Shown piece after piece: positions 38,218 through 45,412 of a stretch of DNA of 59,097 bases. The position numbers were made by a program, and so were the translations under genes. This stretch comes from Alphaproteobacteria bacterium (GTDB lineage: Bacteria > Pseudomonadota > Alphaproteobacteria > Methylaequorales > Methylaequoraceae). The notes below the pieces were generated by a model that searched no databases, was not told the origin of the DNA, and worked only from the letters and a program-made list of their open reading frames with translations. The number at the start of each line of letters is the position of its first letter. Position 1 is the stretch's first letter. The stretch spans positions 1 to 59,097 of the forward strand of contig JBJKUQ010000001.1 of assembly GCA_045563015.1 (NCBI GenBank), given 5' to 3'.

Positions 38218-38607
38218 TTATTTTTTTGCAATTACTCTGTCACATAGAATCTCATTTATAAAATAGATACTTGTGCCTTTTTGTGAAGATTTCCAATTTT
38301 TGTTAGCTGCTTTTTTTACAATATTTTTTCCCTGACCCATATTCATATTATATGCTTCATAGAAAATATCTCTTGTTTTTAAATTACTACAATTTATTTC
38401 TGAAAAAACTACAAGTGATTTCATTTTATTTTGTTGTTCTTTCTTATAATTAACTAATTGAGAAAAAAAAATTCTATCACCTCGTTTTTTAATCGAATTT
38501 GTATTGATGAAGAGATCACTTGTATTTGTTGAAAAAAGTTTGAACCAGGAACTGTATGCTTGGAAGGGAATACAAATAAAAGTAATTATTATAATAATTT
38601 TTTTCAT
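38218..38607 (-). CDS. Exported protein, surface-adhesin E-like
   Basis: Signal peptide from ATG 38607; W..LFST...LFINTNSIKK.GD, EINC, LCD pattern. Family call is from resemblance. Confidence 0.6.
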   Translation of the reverse strand: MKKIIIIITFICIPFQAYSSWFKLFSTNTSDLFINTNSIKKRGDRIFFSQLVNYKKEQQNKMKSLVVFSEINCSNLKTRDIFYEAYNMNMGQGKNIVKKAANKNWKSSQKGTSIYFINEILCDRVIAKK

Positions 38608-38662
38608 ACTAGAAATTATTTTAGAAAAAAATGATACTGATGTTAAGTAATTAAATTTTAAT

Positions 38663-39175
38663 ATGAGAAAACTTACATTTTTTTTTGTTATCCTCTTTTT
38701 TTTTAACAATGTAATAAGTGATGAAAAAATGAATTGTAAAACCGATAGACAGAGTGGACTAAGTTTTATTGGAAAAGATTACCTTAGAATTATTGAGTAT
38801 TTTGGGCTAGACAATTTCTCAATAATGTTATCAAGAAATAGAGATGATATAATCAAAAATCAACTTAAGCAAAATAATGAAAAGGGAAAAATTAAAAGAA
38901 TTAAAAATGTTCATTTTATTGAACTAATTTTAATGAAATCTAATGGATATCCAGTGGTTTTTCATTGTTCATGGAGACATAGAATAGATTTTGATAAGAT
39001 TATCGACAATAATTTTGAATGTATTGAGCAAAAAGAAAAAAGGGATTTATTTAGCCTTAATTACAAGGGCCAGTTCTCTTATTCATCTGCATTCAAAATT
39101 TCTAAAAACAAGATGAATACTTTGCACTCTCTTTTTGGTAAATGTAAAGTTTCAAAAGGCTATATTTCAAAATAA
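38663..39175 (+). CDS. Hypothetical exported protein
   Basis: Signal peptide; MNCK...GKCK terminal Cys pair plus two internal Cys. Confidence 0.6.
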   Translation: MRKLTFFFVILFFFNNVISDEKMNCKTDRQSGLSFIGKDYLRIIEYFGLDNFSIMLSRNRDDIIKNQLKQNNEKGKIKRIKNVHFIELILMKSNGYPVVFHCSWRHRIDFDKIIDNNFECIEQKEKRDLFSLNYKGQFSYSSAFKISKNKMNTLHSLFGKCKVSKGYISK

Positions 39176-39200
39176 TATTTAATTTTAAGGATTAGAGTAA

Positions 39201-39404
39201 ATGAAAAGTAAGTTCGTATATAAGGTTTTAGACTATATAAATATCCAACATCATAATTCTTCTGATGTTGAGAACTTACTCAATATTCAATATGGTAAAG
39301 AAGGTTTTGAGTTAATTGGAGTTTTAGATATGGGTGAGAACAATACCAATAAAGATGGAAAAAGCTCAAGATTTAGGTATATATTTAAAAAAAATGAGAA
39401 GTAA
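39201..39404 (+). CDS. Small protein, DUF4177-like
   Basis: F.YKV...LLN..YGKEGFELIGV...YIFKK pattern. Confidence 0.55.
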   Translation: MKSKFVYKVLDYINIQHHNSSDVENLLNIQYGKEGFELIGVLDMGENNTNKDGKSSRFRYIFKKNEK

Positions 39405-39576
39405 CGTAAAAATTAAAGATATGAATGATAATGTTTATTTAGTAAAAGATTTAAGACAATTTATCAAACATATTAAGGAGTATCATAACTCAGGATCTTC
39501 AATACATGAAGAAAATGGTTTTTATTTTTTTATTGATGATAAATTCAGAAATTTTTTATTTAATCTTGATACTTAA
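39394..39576 (+). CDS. Small hypothetical protein
   Basis: ATG 39394 overlaps the previous gene's end; ends 12 nt before cysS. Confidence 0.5.
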   Translation: MRSNVKIKDMNDNVYLVKDLRQFIKHIKEYHNSGSSIHEENGFYFFIDDKFRNFLFNLDT

Positions 39577-39587
39577 ATTAACAAACT

Positions 39588-40976
39588 ATGGAAATTAATA
39601 TTTATGACAGTCTAACAAGAAAAAAAAGGGAGTTTGTTCCTATTAAAAAGGATGATGTAAGAATTTATGCATGTGGTCCAACTGTATATGATTATGCTCA
39701 TATAGGAAATGCTCGAATGTCTGTAGTAACTGATTTACTTGTTAGAGTATTAAGAACTAAGTTTTCAAACGTAAAGTTTGTTTCTAATATTACGGATATT
39801 GATGATAAAATTATTGAAGCATCGTTACTTCAAAAAAAATCAATTCAAGAAATAACTGAAAAATTCCATAAAATTTATAATAATGATATGCAAAGAATTG
39901 GAGTGCAAGCTCCAGATAATCAACCAAAAGCAACACAACATATAAAAGAAATGATTTCAATGATTCAAAAACTTTTAGAAAATAATTGTGCTTATGTAAC
40001 TGAGAGTCATGTTATTTTTGATATAAAAAAATATAAATTTTATGGTTGTTTATCTGGAAGATTAAGTGATCAGCAAATTGGTGGAAATAGAATTGAGGTT
40101 GCAGAATTTAAAAAAAATTCTGGTGATTTTATTTTATGGAAACCAAGTAAATTAAATGAACCTAGTTGGGATTCACCATGGGGTAAGGGTCGTCCAGGGT
40201 GGCATATTGAATGCAGTGCAATGGCAGAAAAATGCTTAGGCTCCCCTTTTGATATTCATTGTGGAGGCGTAGATTTAACTTTTCCACATCACGAAAATGA
40301 GATTGCTCAGTCCTGTTCAATAAAAAATATAAACTCTGATCCAGAAACTTTTAGTAAGTATTGGTTTCATAACGGGTTTGTAACTGTCAATGGAGAAAAA
40401 ATGTCAAAATCACTTGGTAATATTACATTGGTAAATGAATTACTAAAAAATTATTCTGGTGATGTTGTAAGATATAGTCTGTTGACATCGCATTACAGAC
40501 AGCCACTTGATTGGTCGAAAACAATCCTAGAGCAATCTAAAAAAACATTAGAAAAATTTAAAAAGATAATTGATGATTGTAATCTTGAAAAAGACATTTT
40601 TCGTAAATATTCTGATGAAAAGTATATAAATAATTTTCTTTATGATCTCTATGATGACCTTAATACTCCTAGAGCATTTGCAACTTTGAACTCATGGATT
40701 GATAAGATTAAAAAGAAATCTGAAAGCAAAGAAACTATAATTTCTTTTATTAAGTGTCTAGAAATTTTAGGAATAAATCTAAATAAAGATAGATATAAAA
40801 ATAAAAAAATAGATAAATCAGAAGAAGAAGTAATTATAAAATTAATTGAAAATAGAGACAATGCACGAAAAAATAAAGATTTTGAAAAAGCTGATGAAAT
40901 AAGAGATAAACTTAAGGAGTTAAATATATCAATAGAGGATTCTGAAGATGGAACTAAGTGGAAAAAAAATAATTAA
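39588..40976 (+). CDS. cysS: Cysteine--tRNA ligase
   Basis: YACGPTVYDYAHIGNAR, GRPGWHIECSAM, HCGGVDLTFPHHENE, KMSKSLGN. Confidence 0.99.
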   Translation: MEINIYDSLTRKKREFVPIKKDDVRIYACGPTVYDYAHIGNARMSVVTDLLVRVLRTKFSNVKFVSNITDIDDKIIEASLLQKKSIQEITEKFHKIYNNDMQRIGVQAPDNQPKATQHIKEMISMIQKLLENNCAYVTESHVIFDIKKYKFYGCLSGRLSDQQIGGNRIEVAEFKKNSGDFILWKPSKLNEPSWDSPWGKGRPGWHIECSAMAEKCLGSPFDIHCGGVDLTFPHHENEIAQSCSIKNINSDPETFSKYWFHNGFVTVNGEKMSKSLGNITLVNELLKNYSGDVVRYSLLTSHYRQPLDWSKTILEQSKKTLEKFKKIIDDCNLEKDIFRKYSDEKYINNFLYDLYDDLNTPRAFATLNSWIDKIKKKSESKETIISFIKCLEILGINLNKDRYKNKKIDKSEEEVIIKLIENRDNARKNKDFEKADEIRDKLKELNISIEDSEDGTKWKKNN

Positions 40977-41616
40977 AAACCCATTTAAATTAGTAATTGT
41001 ATTTTTTTTAAAATTATATCAGTACACTATTTCTCCTATTTTAGGAGTGAATTGTAGATTTGTCCCAACTTGTTCGGAGTACTCAATTCAAGCTTTTAAT
41101 GAGTTTGGATTTTTCAAAGGTTTTTTACTAACAATCAAAAGATTAATGAAATGTCATCCATTTTGTAAAAGTGAGTATGATCCAATTGAAAAAAATTACA
41201 AAATAACAATTAAAAGAGTTTCAAAAAAAAATATAAGAAAGTATAGGTTAGAGAGTTTATATTCTAATATTGACTCTAAATTAGCCTTTTATAAAGATGA
41301 TATATTAAAATCAACATTACATTTAGCGTTATTTTTAAATAATAAATTTGTTTCAGGATTAACTTTAATTAAGAATGAAAATTCTTTTCAAATTAGAGGG
41401 ATGTTTACAGTAAAAGATCAAATAAATAAGGGATTTGGTTCAAAATTAATTAAATATGTTAAAAAAAACGTTCTTAATAAAAAAAATAATCATTTATGGT
41501 GTAATGCTAGAATTAAAGCCATAAACTTTTATAAAAAAAATGATTTTAAAGAATATGGAGATTTTTTTTTAGTGAAAAAAATTGGTCTACATAAAAAATT
41601 AGAATTTCGCTTATGA
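40948..41616 (+). CDS. Fusion: YidD membrane-insertion factor (N-term) + GNAT acetyltransferase (C-term)
   Basis: YQYTISP..CRFVPTCSEYS..KRLMKCHPF..YDP (YidD), followed in frame by QIRGMFT..QINKGFGSKL..LWCNAR..AINFYKK (GNAT). Confidence 0.82.
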   Translation: MELSGKKIIKNPFKLVIVFFLKLYQYTISPILGVNCRFVPTCSEYSIQAFNEFGFFKGFLLTIKRLMKCHPFCKSEYDPIEKNYKITIKRVSKKNIRKYRLESLYSNIDSKLAFYKDDILKSTLHLALFLNNKFVSGLTLIKNENSFQIRGMFTVKDQINKGFGSKLIKYVKKNVLNKKNNHLWCNARIKAINFYKKNDFKEYGDFFLVKKIGLHKKLEFRL

Positions 41617-41993
41617 TTAATAAAAAAAAGCAATTAAATATTTTCGGGAAAAAATTACAAATTTGTTCAAAAATTCCGCTCACAGGTTTTTTTAGAGATG
41701 GATGTTGTAATAGTTCAGGTCAGGATATTGGTAATCATATTATTTGCTCAAAGGTTACGGAGGAATTCTTAAAATTTTCTCTATCCAAAGGAAATGATTT
41801 AATAAGTAAAAATAGTGAAGTAAACTTTCCTGGACTTGTTAGTGGGGATAAATGGTGTTTATGTGTGGATAGGTGGTTGGAAGCTTTAAAAGATAAATGT
41901 GCTCCTAGGGTTTATCTTAATTCAACTAATCAAAACGTATTACAGAAAATTAGTTTAGAAACTCTAAAAAGATTTGCATTAGACCTTAACTAA
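41613..41993 (+). CDS. DUF2237 family protein
   Basis: PLTGFFRDGCC, HIICSKVTEEFL, GNDL, FPGL..GDKWCLC..RW.EA. Confidence 0.88.
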   Translation: MINKKKQLNIFGKKLQICSKIPLTGFFRDGCCNSSGQDIGNHIICSKVTEEFLKFSLSKGNDLISKNSEVNFPGLVSGDKWCLCVDRWLEALKDKCAPRVYLNSTNQNVLQKISLETLKRFALDLN

Positions 41994-42000
41994 AATTATT

Positions 42001-42534
42001 ATGCATCGAATCATGAAAAATTTATTAATAGTTTCATCAACAAAAAACTCAAATTTTCAACTTTCTAAAGAAATTAAAGATTTTTTTGGTGATAATAAAG
42101 AGATTAATTGTAATGTTATTTCATTAGAGGATTTTGACTTGCCTCTTTATAAACCAGATTTAGAGGAAAATTTTAAGAGAAAAGACGAATTTCCAGGTGA
42201 TATTGAAAGAATAAAAAATTTATTTTTAGAATCTGATGCATTTGTTTGGTGTAGTCCTGAATATAATGGTGGAATTTCTCCAATATTAACTAATGTAATA
42301 GCTTGGATAAGTAGAGCTACGATTGATTGGAAAGAAGGTTTTAAGGATAAACACTCTCTTATTTGCACTTCCTCTGGAGGAAATGGTAAGCATTTTATAA
42401 AGGGTTTTACTCTCCAACTAGGTTATCTTGGTGCTAAAGTAATGGATGAATCAATTATAAGAACAAAAAAAAAAGATTTGGAAGAAAACGAATTTAAGGA
42501 AATATTAACTAAATTTTTAAAAAAATTTATATAA
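42001..42534 (+). CDS. NADPH-dependent FMN reductase (flavodoxin-like)
   Basis: SSTKNSN, SPEYNGGISPILTNVIAWIS, TSSGGNG. Confidence 0.85.
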   Translation: MHRIMKNLLIVSSTKNSNFQLSKEIKDFFGDNKEINCNVISLEDFDLPLYKPDLEENFKRKDEFPGDIERIKNLFLESDAFVWCSPEYNGGISPILTNVIAWISRATIDWKEGFKDKHSLICTSSGGNGKHFIKGFTLQLGYLGAKVMDESIIRTKKKDLEENEFKEILTKFLKKFI

Positions 42535-42636: not shown

Positions 42637-44079
42637 ATGTATAAGAGAAAAATGAAAGAAGAATATGGATTTCTAATCAATGGAAAATGGAAATTTAGTA
42701 AAAGAAAACTGAATGTTTTTAATCCATTCAACAATAAAGTTATTTCAAAAATTTCTGTTGTAGATAAAAATAATGTACTTGATGCAATAGATAGTTCAAC
42801 AAAGGCGTTTCAAGTTTGGTCTAATGAAAGTGTAAAAAAAAGATCAGATATTTTAAAAAATTTCTTTCAACTTATTATAAAAAATCGAAAAAAACTATCT
42901 AAAATAATTACACTTGAAACTGGTAAGCCCTTGAAAGAGTCAGAAGTTGAAGTAGATTATGGCGCCTCTTTCATTGAATGGGCAGCAGAACAATCATTAA
43001 GAATAAAAGGAGATATATTTGAATCTCCAGAAGTTGGAAAAAAGATGTTTACAGTTAAACAACCCATTGGGGTAGTTGTCGCAATAACCCCATGGAATTT
43101 TCCCTTAGCGATGGTTACAAGAAAAGTTAGTGCTGCAGTAGCTGCGGGTTGTACTGTTATTTTAAAGCCTTCTGAGTTGACACCTATAACTGCTCTGGAA
43201 TTAGGAAGTTTATCCATTAAGGCAGGTTTTCCTCCAGGTGTATTTAATATTTTAAATGGTAATCCTGATATGATTGGAAAAATCCTTTGTAAAGACTTAA
43301 ATATACGTAAGATCACCTTTACAGGTTCAACTGAAGTAGGAAAACTATTAATGAAAAGATCGTCATCAACTGTAAAAAATATATCATTGGAATTAGGAGG
43401 AAATGCCCCATTTATAGTGTTTGCAGACGCAAATATTAAAAATGCAGTTGATGGTTTCATTATGGCTAAGTTTAGAAATGCAGGTCAAACCTGTATTTCT
43501 GCCAATAGATTATTTATTCATAAATCTGTGAGTGAGAAATTTATAGATTTATTATCCATTGAAATTAAAAAAATTAAAGTTGGTAACGGTATGCAAAATA
43601 ATGATTTAGGACCTTTAATATCTCACGAAGCACTAAAAAAAGTTGAAAGTCATGTTAACGAATCAAAAAAAAAAGGAGCAAAGATTTTAATGGGTGGTAA
43701 AATGCATAAACTTGGGGGGTTCTTTTATGAACCAACAATTATTTTGGGTATAAAAAAAAATATGCAAGTTTTTAGAAATGAAAACTTTGGTCCAATTATT
43801 CCTATCATAAAATTTTCAAGTGACAAAGAAGTTATAGATTTATCTAATGATACCAATTATGGGTTAGCTGCATATTTTTATACTAAAGACTCTTCACGTA
43901 TATGGAATACATGCAAGAATTTAGAGTACGGTATGTTTGGAATAAATTCGGGTAAAATTTCAACATATTTAAATTCATTTGGAGGTCTTAAAGAGTCTGG
44001 AATTGGCAGAGAGGGATCAATTCAGTGTCTAGACCCATTCTTGGAGACAAAGTTCGTATCTTGGAGATATAATGACTAA
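42637..44079 (+). CDS. gabD: NAD(P)-dependent succinate-semialdehyde dehydrogenase
   Basis: ITPWNFP, KPSELTP, FTGSTEVGK, LELGGNAP, RNAGQTC, ENFGP, FGGLKESGIGREG. Start may be ATG 42652. Confidence 0.85.
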   Translation: MYKRKMKEEYGFLINGKWKFSKRKLNVFNPFNNKVISKISVVDKNNVLDAIDSSTKAFQVWSNESVKKRSDILKNFFQLIIKNRKKLSKIITLETGKPLKESEVEVDYGASFIEWAAEQSLRIKGDIFESPEVGKKMFTVKQPIGVVVAITPWNFPLAMVTRKVSAAVAAGCTVILKPSELTPITALELGSLSIKAGFPPGVFNILNGNPDMIGKILCKDLNIRKITFTGSTEVGKLLMKRSSSTVKNISLELGGNAPFIVFADANIKNAVDGFIMAKFRNAGQTCISANRLFIHKSVSEKFIDLLSIEIKKIKVGNGMQNNDLGPLISHEALKKVESHVNESKKKGAKILMGGKMHKLGGFFYEPTIILGIKKNMQVFRNENFGPIIPIIKFSSDKEVIDLSNDTNYGLAAYFYTKDSSRIWNTCKNLEYGMFGINSGKISTYLNSFGGLKESGIGREGSIQCLDPFLETKFVSWRYND

Positions 44080-45412
44080 AAAATTTGATTTATTTGTTAT
44101 TGGTGGAGGTTCAGGTGGGGTAAGGGCCGCAAGAATTGCATCATCAAAAGGAATGAAAGTTGGTTTAGCTGAAGGCTGGAGTCTTGGTGGAACTTGTGTT
44201 AATAGAGGTTGCGTTCCAAAAAAGCTTTACTCATATTCTTCACATTTTAGTGAGGATATTGAATTAATGAGTTCTTTTGGATGGTCTATTTCGAAAAAAA
44301 ATTTTTCTTGGAACAAGTTGGTTCAAAATAAAAAAAAAGAAATTAAACGCTTAAGTCAAATTTACAATTCTTTGCTGGCTAATTCTGGTGTTGAAATTTT
44401 TTCTGGTTTTGCTGAATTTTTAGATTCTGAATCAATAAAAATCGGAAAAAAAACTATTCAATCAAAAAATTTTTTAATAGCCGTTGGAACTCAACCAAAT
44501 AGATTAAATTTTAACGCATCCAAAGAAATAGTTACCTCTGACGAAGCTTTTGATCTTAAAAGTCTTCCAAAAAAAATTCTAATTCTTGGAGGAGGGTATA
44601 TTGCTGTTGAATTTGCAGCAATTTTTAACGGATTGGGAGTGAACACTACTATTTGTATCAGAAGAGAAAAAATTCTTAAAGGTTTTGATGATGACGTAGT
44701 AAGTCAATTAACCAACCAAATGAAGGAAAAGGGAATAAAAATAATTTCCAATGATTTTCCTCAAGAAATTTCAAAAAAAAATAACCTCTTTGATGTTAAG
44801 TATAAAAGAAATAAATCTGAAAAGTTTGATCTAGTGATGGAAGCAACAGGAAGATCACCTAATATTGAAAGATTAAATTTAGAAAAAATCAAAATAAAGC
44901 TATCAAAAAATTCATCTATAATTGTCAACGATTATTTTGAAACATCTTGTAAAAATATATATGCTATTGGAGATGTAATTAACAGAATTCAATTAACACC
45001 AGTTGCTATTGCAGAGGCTATGATTCTTGTGAATAATCTTACTAAAAAAAAGAAAGAAAAGTTCAAATATAACAATGTTCCAACAGCTGTTTTTTCAAAT
45101 CCAAATTATGCTTATGTTGGTTTTACAGAAACTGAAGCCAAAAAAAAATTTAAGAAAATTGAAATTTTTTCCAGTAACTTTAGACCACTAAGATTTTCAT
45201 TATCAAAAAAAAAAGAAAAGGTGTTTGTTAAACTTATAGTGAACAGTTTAAATAACAAAGTAGTAGGTTTGCATTATTTAGGGGAACATGCTGCTGAGAT
45301 TGTTCAAGGTTTCTCTGTTGCAATTGTAAATGGTCTTACAAAAAAAGCTTTTGACAAAACTGTTGGAATTCATCCAACAAGTGCAGAAGAAATTGTAACA
45401 ATGAAAAAATAA
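44072..45412 (+). CDS. gor: Glutathione-disulfide reductase
   Basis: GGGSGG, GGTCVNRGCVPKK, GGGYIAVE, LTPVAIAE, GIHPTSAEE. Confidence 0.94.
   Translation: MTKKFDLFVIGGGSGGVRAARIASSKGMKVGLAEGWSLGGTCVNRGCVPKKLYSYSSHFSEDIELMSSFGWSISKKNFSWNKLVQNKKKEIKRLSQIYNSLLANSGVEIFSGFAEFLDSESIKIGKKTIQSKNFLIAVGTQPNRLNFNASKEIVTSDEAFDLKSLPKKILILGGGYIAVEFAAIFNGLGVNTTICIRREKILKGFDDDVVSQLTNQMKEKGIKIISNDFPQEISKKNNLFDVKYKRNKSEKFDLVMEATGRSPNIERLNLEKIKIKLSKNSSIIVNDYFETSCKNIYAIGDVINRIQLTPVAIAEAMILVNNLTKKKKEKFKYNNVPTAVFSNPNYAYVGFTETEAKKKFKKIEIFSSNFRPLRFSLSKKKEKVFVKLIVNSLNNKVVGLHYLGEHAAEIVQGFSVAIVNGLTKKAFDKTVGIHPTSAEEIVTMKK

Follow-up and report, generated by a model that had tools for sequence, protein, structure and literature searches.

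In a 59,097-nucleotide (nt) stretch of DNA from Alphaproteobacteria bacterium (assembly GCA_045563015.1, contig JBJKUQ010000001.1, positions 1 to 59,097 of the forward strand; hereafter the window), a single gene at 40948..41616 on the plus strand encodes a YidD domain joined in frame to a GNAT acetyltransferase domain. The fusion is a genuine two-domain protein and not an assembly artefact. It represents a new domain architecture of two known families, and it is a single, derived and stably inherited fusion confined to one marine alphaproteobacterial lineage. We consider it probable that the fusion arose from one merger, that both of its halves work, and that an enzyme of the glyphosate N-acetyltransferase (GAT) type is held at the membrane by the only YidD detected in the cell.

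A YidD-GNAT protein in one reading frame

The fusion gene comprises 222 codons plus a stop codon, has no internal stop and begins at an ATG with a GAGGA motif 8 nt upstream. Its N-terminal part is a YidD domain: the Pfam model PF01809 matched residues 16-80 (40993..41187, plus strand; E = 3.4e-26, 91.2 bits against a cut-off of 27) over model positions 3-67 of 67, and the NCBIfam equivalog model for YidD, TIGR00278, scored 76.9 bits against a cut-off of 40. The C-terminal part, residues 86-222 (41203..41613, plus strand), was delimited by an AlphaFold2 (AF2) model, a PDB profile search and Foldseek as a GNAT acetyltransferase domain of the GAT/YitI type, and three Pfam GNAT models (PF13673, PF13508 and PF00583) matched residues 119-205, each above its gathering score. 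The junction and linker between the two (residues 72-85; 41161..41202, plus strand) include a run of seven adenines (A7) at 41179-41185. Across the family, the YDP motif is separated from the first GNAT strand by a linker of only about 5-9 residues, and by about 5 in the 222-amino-acid (aa) protein.

A sequence-only reading had proposed that YidD and GNAT share one frame without a stop, and the open 222-aa frame, with Pfam and NCBIfam scores above their cut-offs, bears this out. Every motif quoted in that reading was found: CRFVPTCSEY (residues 36-45), KCHP (68-71) and YDP (77-79) in the YidD half, and QINKGFG (158-164), LWCNAR (183-188) and AINFYKK (191-197) in the GNAT half. It was also right that no separate GNAT start exists by the junction: the only in-frame ATG, GTG or TTG codons in the fusion gene are codons 1, 34, 67, 152 and 209. 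Because none lies between codons 67 and 152, the GNAT domain can be made in the source genome only within the fusion.

The junction carries homopolymer runs, which raises the question of whether the true genome has a stop in an A7 or A9 run and hence two genes; a database protein (P0085) that resembles a frame-shifted assembly of a related fused gene points the same way. Against this, the identical 222-aa protein recurs on 19 contigs, which come from at least 10 independent samples. When the DNA of five contigs from independent assemblies was compared, all had the same A7 and A9 runs, with 0-1 differences over 669 nt, so the check on the A7 run proposed in the sequence-only reading upheld the fused frame. 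Homologues at 95% and 88% identity are likewise 222 aa long, and both Pfam domains are present, down to 45% identity, in 28 homologues, which measure 202-232 aa (217-232 aa in all but one). Furthermore, 26 species genomes are in frame despite very different junction sequences, and a separate GNAT gene would be left without any usable start codon. On this evidence, above all the number of independent contigs and samples, the matching runs and the full-length homologues, we ruled out a sequencing or assembly artefact, which we regard as extremely improbable.

Origin and distribution of the fusion

In our collection, the order to which the source genome belongs consists of one family with 42 species genomes in 14 genera, and the locus is fully assembled in 32 of these. 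yidD and GNAT lie in one frame in 26 genomes (7 genera). The remaining six, from four genera (G005/G018, G013/G021, G008 and G019), have separate yidD and GNAT open reading frames (ORFs), with GNAT in the +1 frame. We built a maximum-likelihood tree of cysS, the DUF2237 gene and the FMN reductase gene, leaving out the fusion gene and rooting with five outgroup CysRS sequences. The 26 fused genomes formed one clade (Shimodaira-Hasegawa-like approximate likelihood ratio test, 100) and the split genera a basal grade. Since a single state change suffices to explain this pattern, the fusion is derived and arose once.

Beyond the clade, an exhaustive search of 1.84 billion representatives for YidD-GNAT proteins gave five matches at E ≤ 1e-30, all of them from this clade, and no other YidD-GNAT protein was found among the best 150 matches. 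The only other long YidD there was P0090 (227 aa), which has two tandem YidD domains (PF01809 twice), another unusual YidD architecture. A word-based search aimed at longer proteins was uninformative, yielding just the two closest homologues, and a scan of contigs that used the YidD motif as its pattern gave an output dominated by ordinary YidDs.

The split genomes retain the arrangement to which the junction and linker correspond, an A-rich overlap where the basal relatives shift frame. In these genomes, the yidD stop falls within a run of 8 to 11 adenines (A8-A11). The GNAT ORF starts 12-13 codons before that stop, its ATG overlapping the Y-D codons of the Y-D-P motif (TATGAy); in genus g2, the GNAT start is a TTG formed out of the corresponding F-D codons. 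In each of the four split lineages, a run shorter by one A would join the two frames and give a linker like that of the fused proteins. The split state is real and not a run-length error, because gene-called GNATs of 155-170 aa that start MTQF, MIQS or MTLF recur in many independent assemblies (clusters at 90% with 88, 23, 13 and 6 members).

Long A runs also remain in some fused genes (A10 in G001, A11 in G054). P0085 has 187 aa, of which the C-terminal 140 are those of a fused-clade GNAT, and by comparison at the protein level its N-terminus apparently derives from out-of-frame reading of the yidD region, which points to a variable, or in some assembly erroneous, length of the A11 run in a genus-g9 relative. 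Together, the long runs and P0085 mark the junction as a slippage-prone site, and polymerase slippage could allow split lineages to make a certain amount of fused product, and fused lineages a certain amount of free YidD.

The fusion gene belongs to a tight operon-like block. cysS (39588..40976, plus strand) overlaps its start by 29 nt, the start of the DUF2237 gene (41613..41993, plus strand) overlaps its stop (ATGA), and a gene of the NADPH-dependent FMN reductase family (42001..42534, plus strand), the last of the conserved block, follows 7 nt after DUF2237. The neighbourhood had been named correctly from the sequence, as Pfam matches and coordinates confirmed. The order cysS-yidD-GNAT-DUF2237-FMN reductase is retained in 32 of 32 genomes with a fully assembled locus; in the ancestor of the order, yidD and GNAT were already neighbours in this block, with GNAT in the +1 frame and its start overlapping the end of the YidD motif. 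Most simply, the poly(A) overlap then underwent a one-base change; this would have joined the two frames a single time, in the ancestor of a clade spanning at least 7 genera, with the joined gene kept since in all 26 sampled species.

Just past the block, at 42637-45412 of the window, lie an aldehyde dehydrogenase gene and then one for a pyridine nucleotide-disulphide oxidoreductase that resembles glutathione reductase. These two genes, added to cysS, the FMN reductase gene and that of the Cys-rich DUF2237 protein, lend the neighbourhood a thiol/redox flavour. Upstream of cysS (38218-39576) are several small ORFs without a Pfam match, for example one of 170 aa at 38663..39175. In the split genera g10, g5 and g6, a conserved ORF of about 190 aa, rich in lysine and matching no Pfam family, lies between the GNAT gene and DUF2237 (L131:2938-3516, minus strand; L132:4252-4827, plus strand; L133:2951-3529, minus strand); it is missing at the same spot in split genus g2 and in the fused clade.

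A history of this kind could have been neutral. Two functionally unrelated, overlapping and co-transcribed genes would have been merged by a homopolymer indel in the course of streamlining, the product would be tolerated on account of its two cytoplasmic, independently folding domains, and the placement of the GNAT at the membrane would have no role. In keeping with such an accident, the DNA is AT-rich (28% GC in the window), the genes are tightly packed with overlaps of 29 and 4 nt, every lineage has a poly(A) hot spot at the junction, and the basal genera manage with separate genes. Moreover, the nearest stand-alone GAT-like proteins elsewhere are not neighbours of yidD, which was absent at all three loci inspected (P0159, P0128 and P0171). 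Two observations fit it less well. The fused state is unreversed in 26 of 26 sampled species across 7 genera, despite A runs that mutate easily. In addition, yidD and GNAT are adjacent wherever the locus is assembled in the order, whereas the 16 other alphaproteobacterial families sampled had a plain YidD match only, with no GAT-like neighbour, and yidD was not beside cysS in the five of these families that were checked. We therefore regard a neutral accident as a serious alternative, if on the whole an unlikely one.

The YidD and GNAT halves

Among 20 fused homologues (alignment A1), invariant columns occur in both halves, which are thus both under constraint: C36, R37, P40, C42, S43, Y45, C69, H70 and P71 in YidD, and Q148-M152, G162, G164, W184-N186, R188, Y195 and H215 in GNAT. 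Both are probably functional: the YidD half, the sole copy, has lost none of its conserved residues, and the GNAT half preserves the acetyl-CoA loop together with the residues aligned to four of the five at the GAT active site.

A whole-genome scan of the source genome (76% complete) gave a single YidD match, the fusion, and no second yidD. Three near-complete fused relatives, G010 (99%), G016 (98%) and G043 (98%), likewise had one YidD match apiece. With the fused protein as the sole YidD match in near-complete fused genomes, whatever YidD does in these cells is therefore supplied by the fusion. On contig C18, rnpA, yidC, engB and argB are contiguous (G000:C18:4095-8795); only 33 nt separate rnpA from yidC, no yidD lies between them, and the classical yidD slot is empty. 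The sequence-only reading had placed the gene outside the usual rnpA-yidD-yidC setting, which holds, since yidD follows cysS on contig C1 and rnpA stands directly before yidC on C18. It had also suggested looking for a second yidD near yidC, and none was found there. One split-type genome, G019 (68% complete, 4% contamination), has a second yidD (C32:2210-2452) about 900 nt upstream of a second, divergent yidC (C32:3360-5072) that is 43% identical to the main yidC; this is either a classical pair retained as a paralogue or a contaminant contig.

YidD is a very widespread small cysteine-rich protein whose role is described only as that of a putative insertion efficiency factor, and in E. coli it lies peripherally at the inner membrane, on the cytoplasmic side. 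In the fusion, the N-terminal helix is hydrophobic (mean Kyte-Doolittle value up to 1.4 over residues 16-33) and below transmembrane strength, which fits a predicted peripheral membrane anchor. The AF2 model has two helices in this half (residues 12-28 and 42-69; predicted local distance difference test score, pLDDT, 55-78), and the PDB profile search gave no solved structure matching it. When a complex of the YidD part (residues 1-85 of A1) and YidC (567 aa, alignment A2) was predicted, the score was 0.00, which counts neither way. Provided that the YidD half acts as its E. coli counterpart does, it may plausibly tether the acetyltransferase to the membrane or to the insertase, as the sequence-only reading proposed. 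This idea is tempered by the unfused state of both genes in basal sister genera, and by the kinship of the GNAT half, which lies with GAT and not with the acetyltransferases of protein N-termini.

For the GNAT half, the AF2 model, built on the 20 fused homologues (mean pLDDT 82, predicted template modelling (TM) score, pTM, 0.61), showed a confident GNAT fold over residues 86-222 (pLDDT > 90), preceded by a disordered segment at residues 72-81 (pLDDT < 50). The best match in the PDB profile search was 2bsw (E = 4.5e-23, profile positions 83-223 against chain residues 2-143), with the next solved GNAT at E = 4.5e-06. The same structure was the best Foldseek match (TM score 0.83) among at least 500 GNAT structures matched. 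The acetyl-CoA loop (Q/RxxGxG/A) is kept as QINKGFG. Residue alignment to GAT equated R150 with R73, R188 with R111, Y195 with Y118 and H215 with H138, all four being invariant in the family, and the position of R21 in GAT is occupied by Y105, an invariant Tyr. In GAT, R21, R73, R111, Y118 and H138 reportedly form the active site, providing a cationic substrate site, a general acid and a catalytic base. Judged by these homologies, the GNAT half is a true member of the GAT/YitI branch with a predicted altered pocket.

GAT is an enzyme that acts on small anionic amines; we know of no natural substrate for the GAT/YitI acetyltransferases. Given a GAT-like cationic pocket, the most likely reaction would be N-acetylation of a small anionic amine, with acidic amino acids, aminophosphonates and phosphoserine-like compounds as candidates. 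Engineered GAT variants acetylate Asp and Glu weakly. We considered whether the domain could be a missing N-acetylglutamate synthase (NAGS) and rejected this: nothing demands such a role, as 30 of the order's 42 genomes have argJ, an NCBIfam search with an E threshold of 0.1 matched no NAGS model, and there was no NAGS among the PDB matches.

The gene for P0159, a GAT-like protein that stands alone and shares 41% identity with the GNAT half, lies divergently beside an EPSP synthase gene (L142:1661-3450). Glyphosate, from which the GAT family takes its name, targets EPSP synthase, and this adjacency may be a coincidence.

A different kind of substrate would follow if YidD docked the GNAT at the YidC/Sec site, where it could acetylate the N-termini or lysines of nascent membrane proteins co-translationally. 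Eukaryotic Nat enzymes act at the ribosome exit, and Naa60 and GCN5 were among the weaker Foldseek matches. In addition, cross-linking of E. coli YidD to a nascent inner-membrane protein at the Sec-YidC site is reported (Yu et al. 2011, as listed in PMC8082313). Against protein acetylation, the best match in both sequence and fold is GAT, a small-molecule enzyme, whose cationic-pocket Arg, Arg and His are conserved here, and the unfused forms have no targeting device. A RimI-type protein N-terminal acetyltransferase was ruled out, the RimI model TIGR01575 scoring 13.9 bits against a cut-off of 86.4. We consider a co-translational protein acetyltransferase very unlikely.

Possible roles and comparison with known systems

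On the reading we favour, a GAT-type enzyme held at the membrane by the sole YidD, the acetyltransferase would be made 1:1 with YidD and sit a few residues away from it at the cytoplasmic membrane surface. Several points weigh against this reading. All five genes of the block are syntenic, and adjacency alone does not single out a yidD-GNAT partnership. Because basal sister genera carry both genes unfused, covalent tethering is not required for either function. The replacement of R21 by Tyr means that the substrate probably differs from that of GAT. In the AF2 model, the YidD half has only moderate confidence and, at a pTM of 0.61, the mutual arrangement of the domains is not defined. A second yidD could lie in the missing part of the source genome.

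A bolder version goes further: a functional yidD-GNAT partnership would predate the fusion, a GAT-type enzyme beside YidD/YidC would act on an anionic amine at the membrane surface (a lipid head group resembling phosphoserine or phosphoethanolamine, for instance, or the terminus of a nascent chain), and poly(A) slippage would set the ratio of free YidD to YidD-GNAT in split and fused lineages alike. We consider this combination improbable. If true, it would be the first functional clue tying YidD to a chemical modification step.

Full-text literature searches found no paper on a YidD-acetyltransferase fusion, in agreement with the suspicion, voiced from the sequence, that the architecture was not known as described; in databases, these proteins carry both Pfam labels and no name. 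A stable fusion across 7 genera, arising from an older conserved overlap, is a hint of the Rosetta-stone type. It also offers a clean natural case of gene merging in AT-rich streamlined genomes, where a single-base poly(A) change can turn two overlapping genes into one, with sister lineages keeping the intermediate. These implications extend to one marine alphaproteobacterial order only, and a neutral origin is quite possible.

Close counterparts of the fusion are the split yidD and GNAT pairs of the basal genera, which are orthologous, lie in the same order and belong to the same block from cysS to DUF2237 and FMN reductase; they differ in having two ORFs, the final 12-13 codons of yidD being overlapped by a GNAT that is read in the +1 frame. 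Compared with YidD as defined by PF01809 and TIGR00278, the N-terminal 80 residues span the full model and keep all Cys, His and Pro motifs, as in E. coli YidD, and here too there is a hydrophobic or amphipathic N-terminal helix without a true transmembrane segment. Unlike the stand-alone protein of about 70-100 aa, the fusion has a 137-residue enzyme attached at its C-terminus. Its gene also departs from the E. coli rnpA-yidD-yidC operon, following cysS while rnpA and yidC adjoin each other on another contig.

Short GNAT-only N-acetylglutamate synthases act on an acidic amino acid and are sometimes fused, for example in argH(A); like them, the protein described here is a small GNAT joined to an unrelated partner. 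With GAT and Bacillus YitI (PDB 2bsw, 2jdc and 2jdd), the GNAT half shares full-length homology, the best fold match, the QxxGxG acetyl-CoA loop and a similar domain size (about 137 aa here, 146 in GAT). It differs from GAT in an identity of only about 26%, in the replacement of R21 by Y105, and in being joined to YidD or, in basal relatives, encoded by a gene that overlaps yidD.

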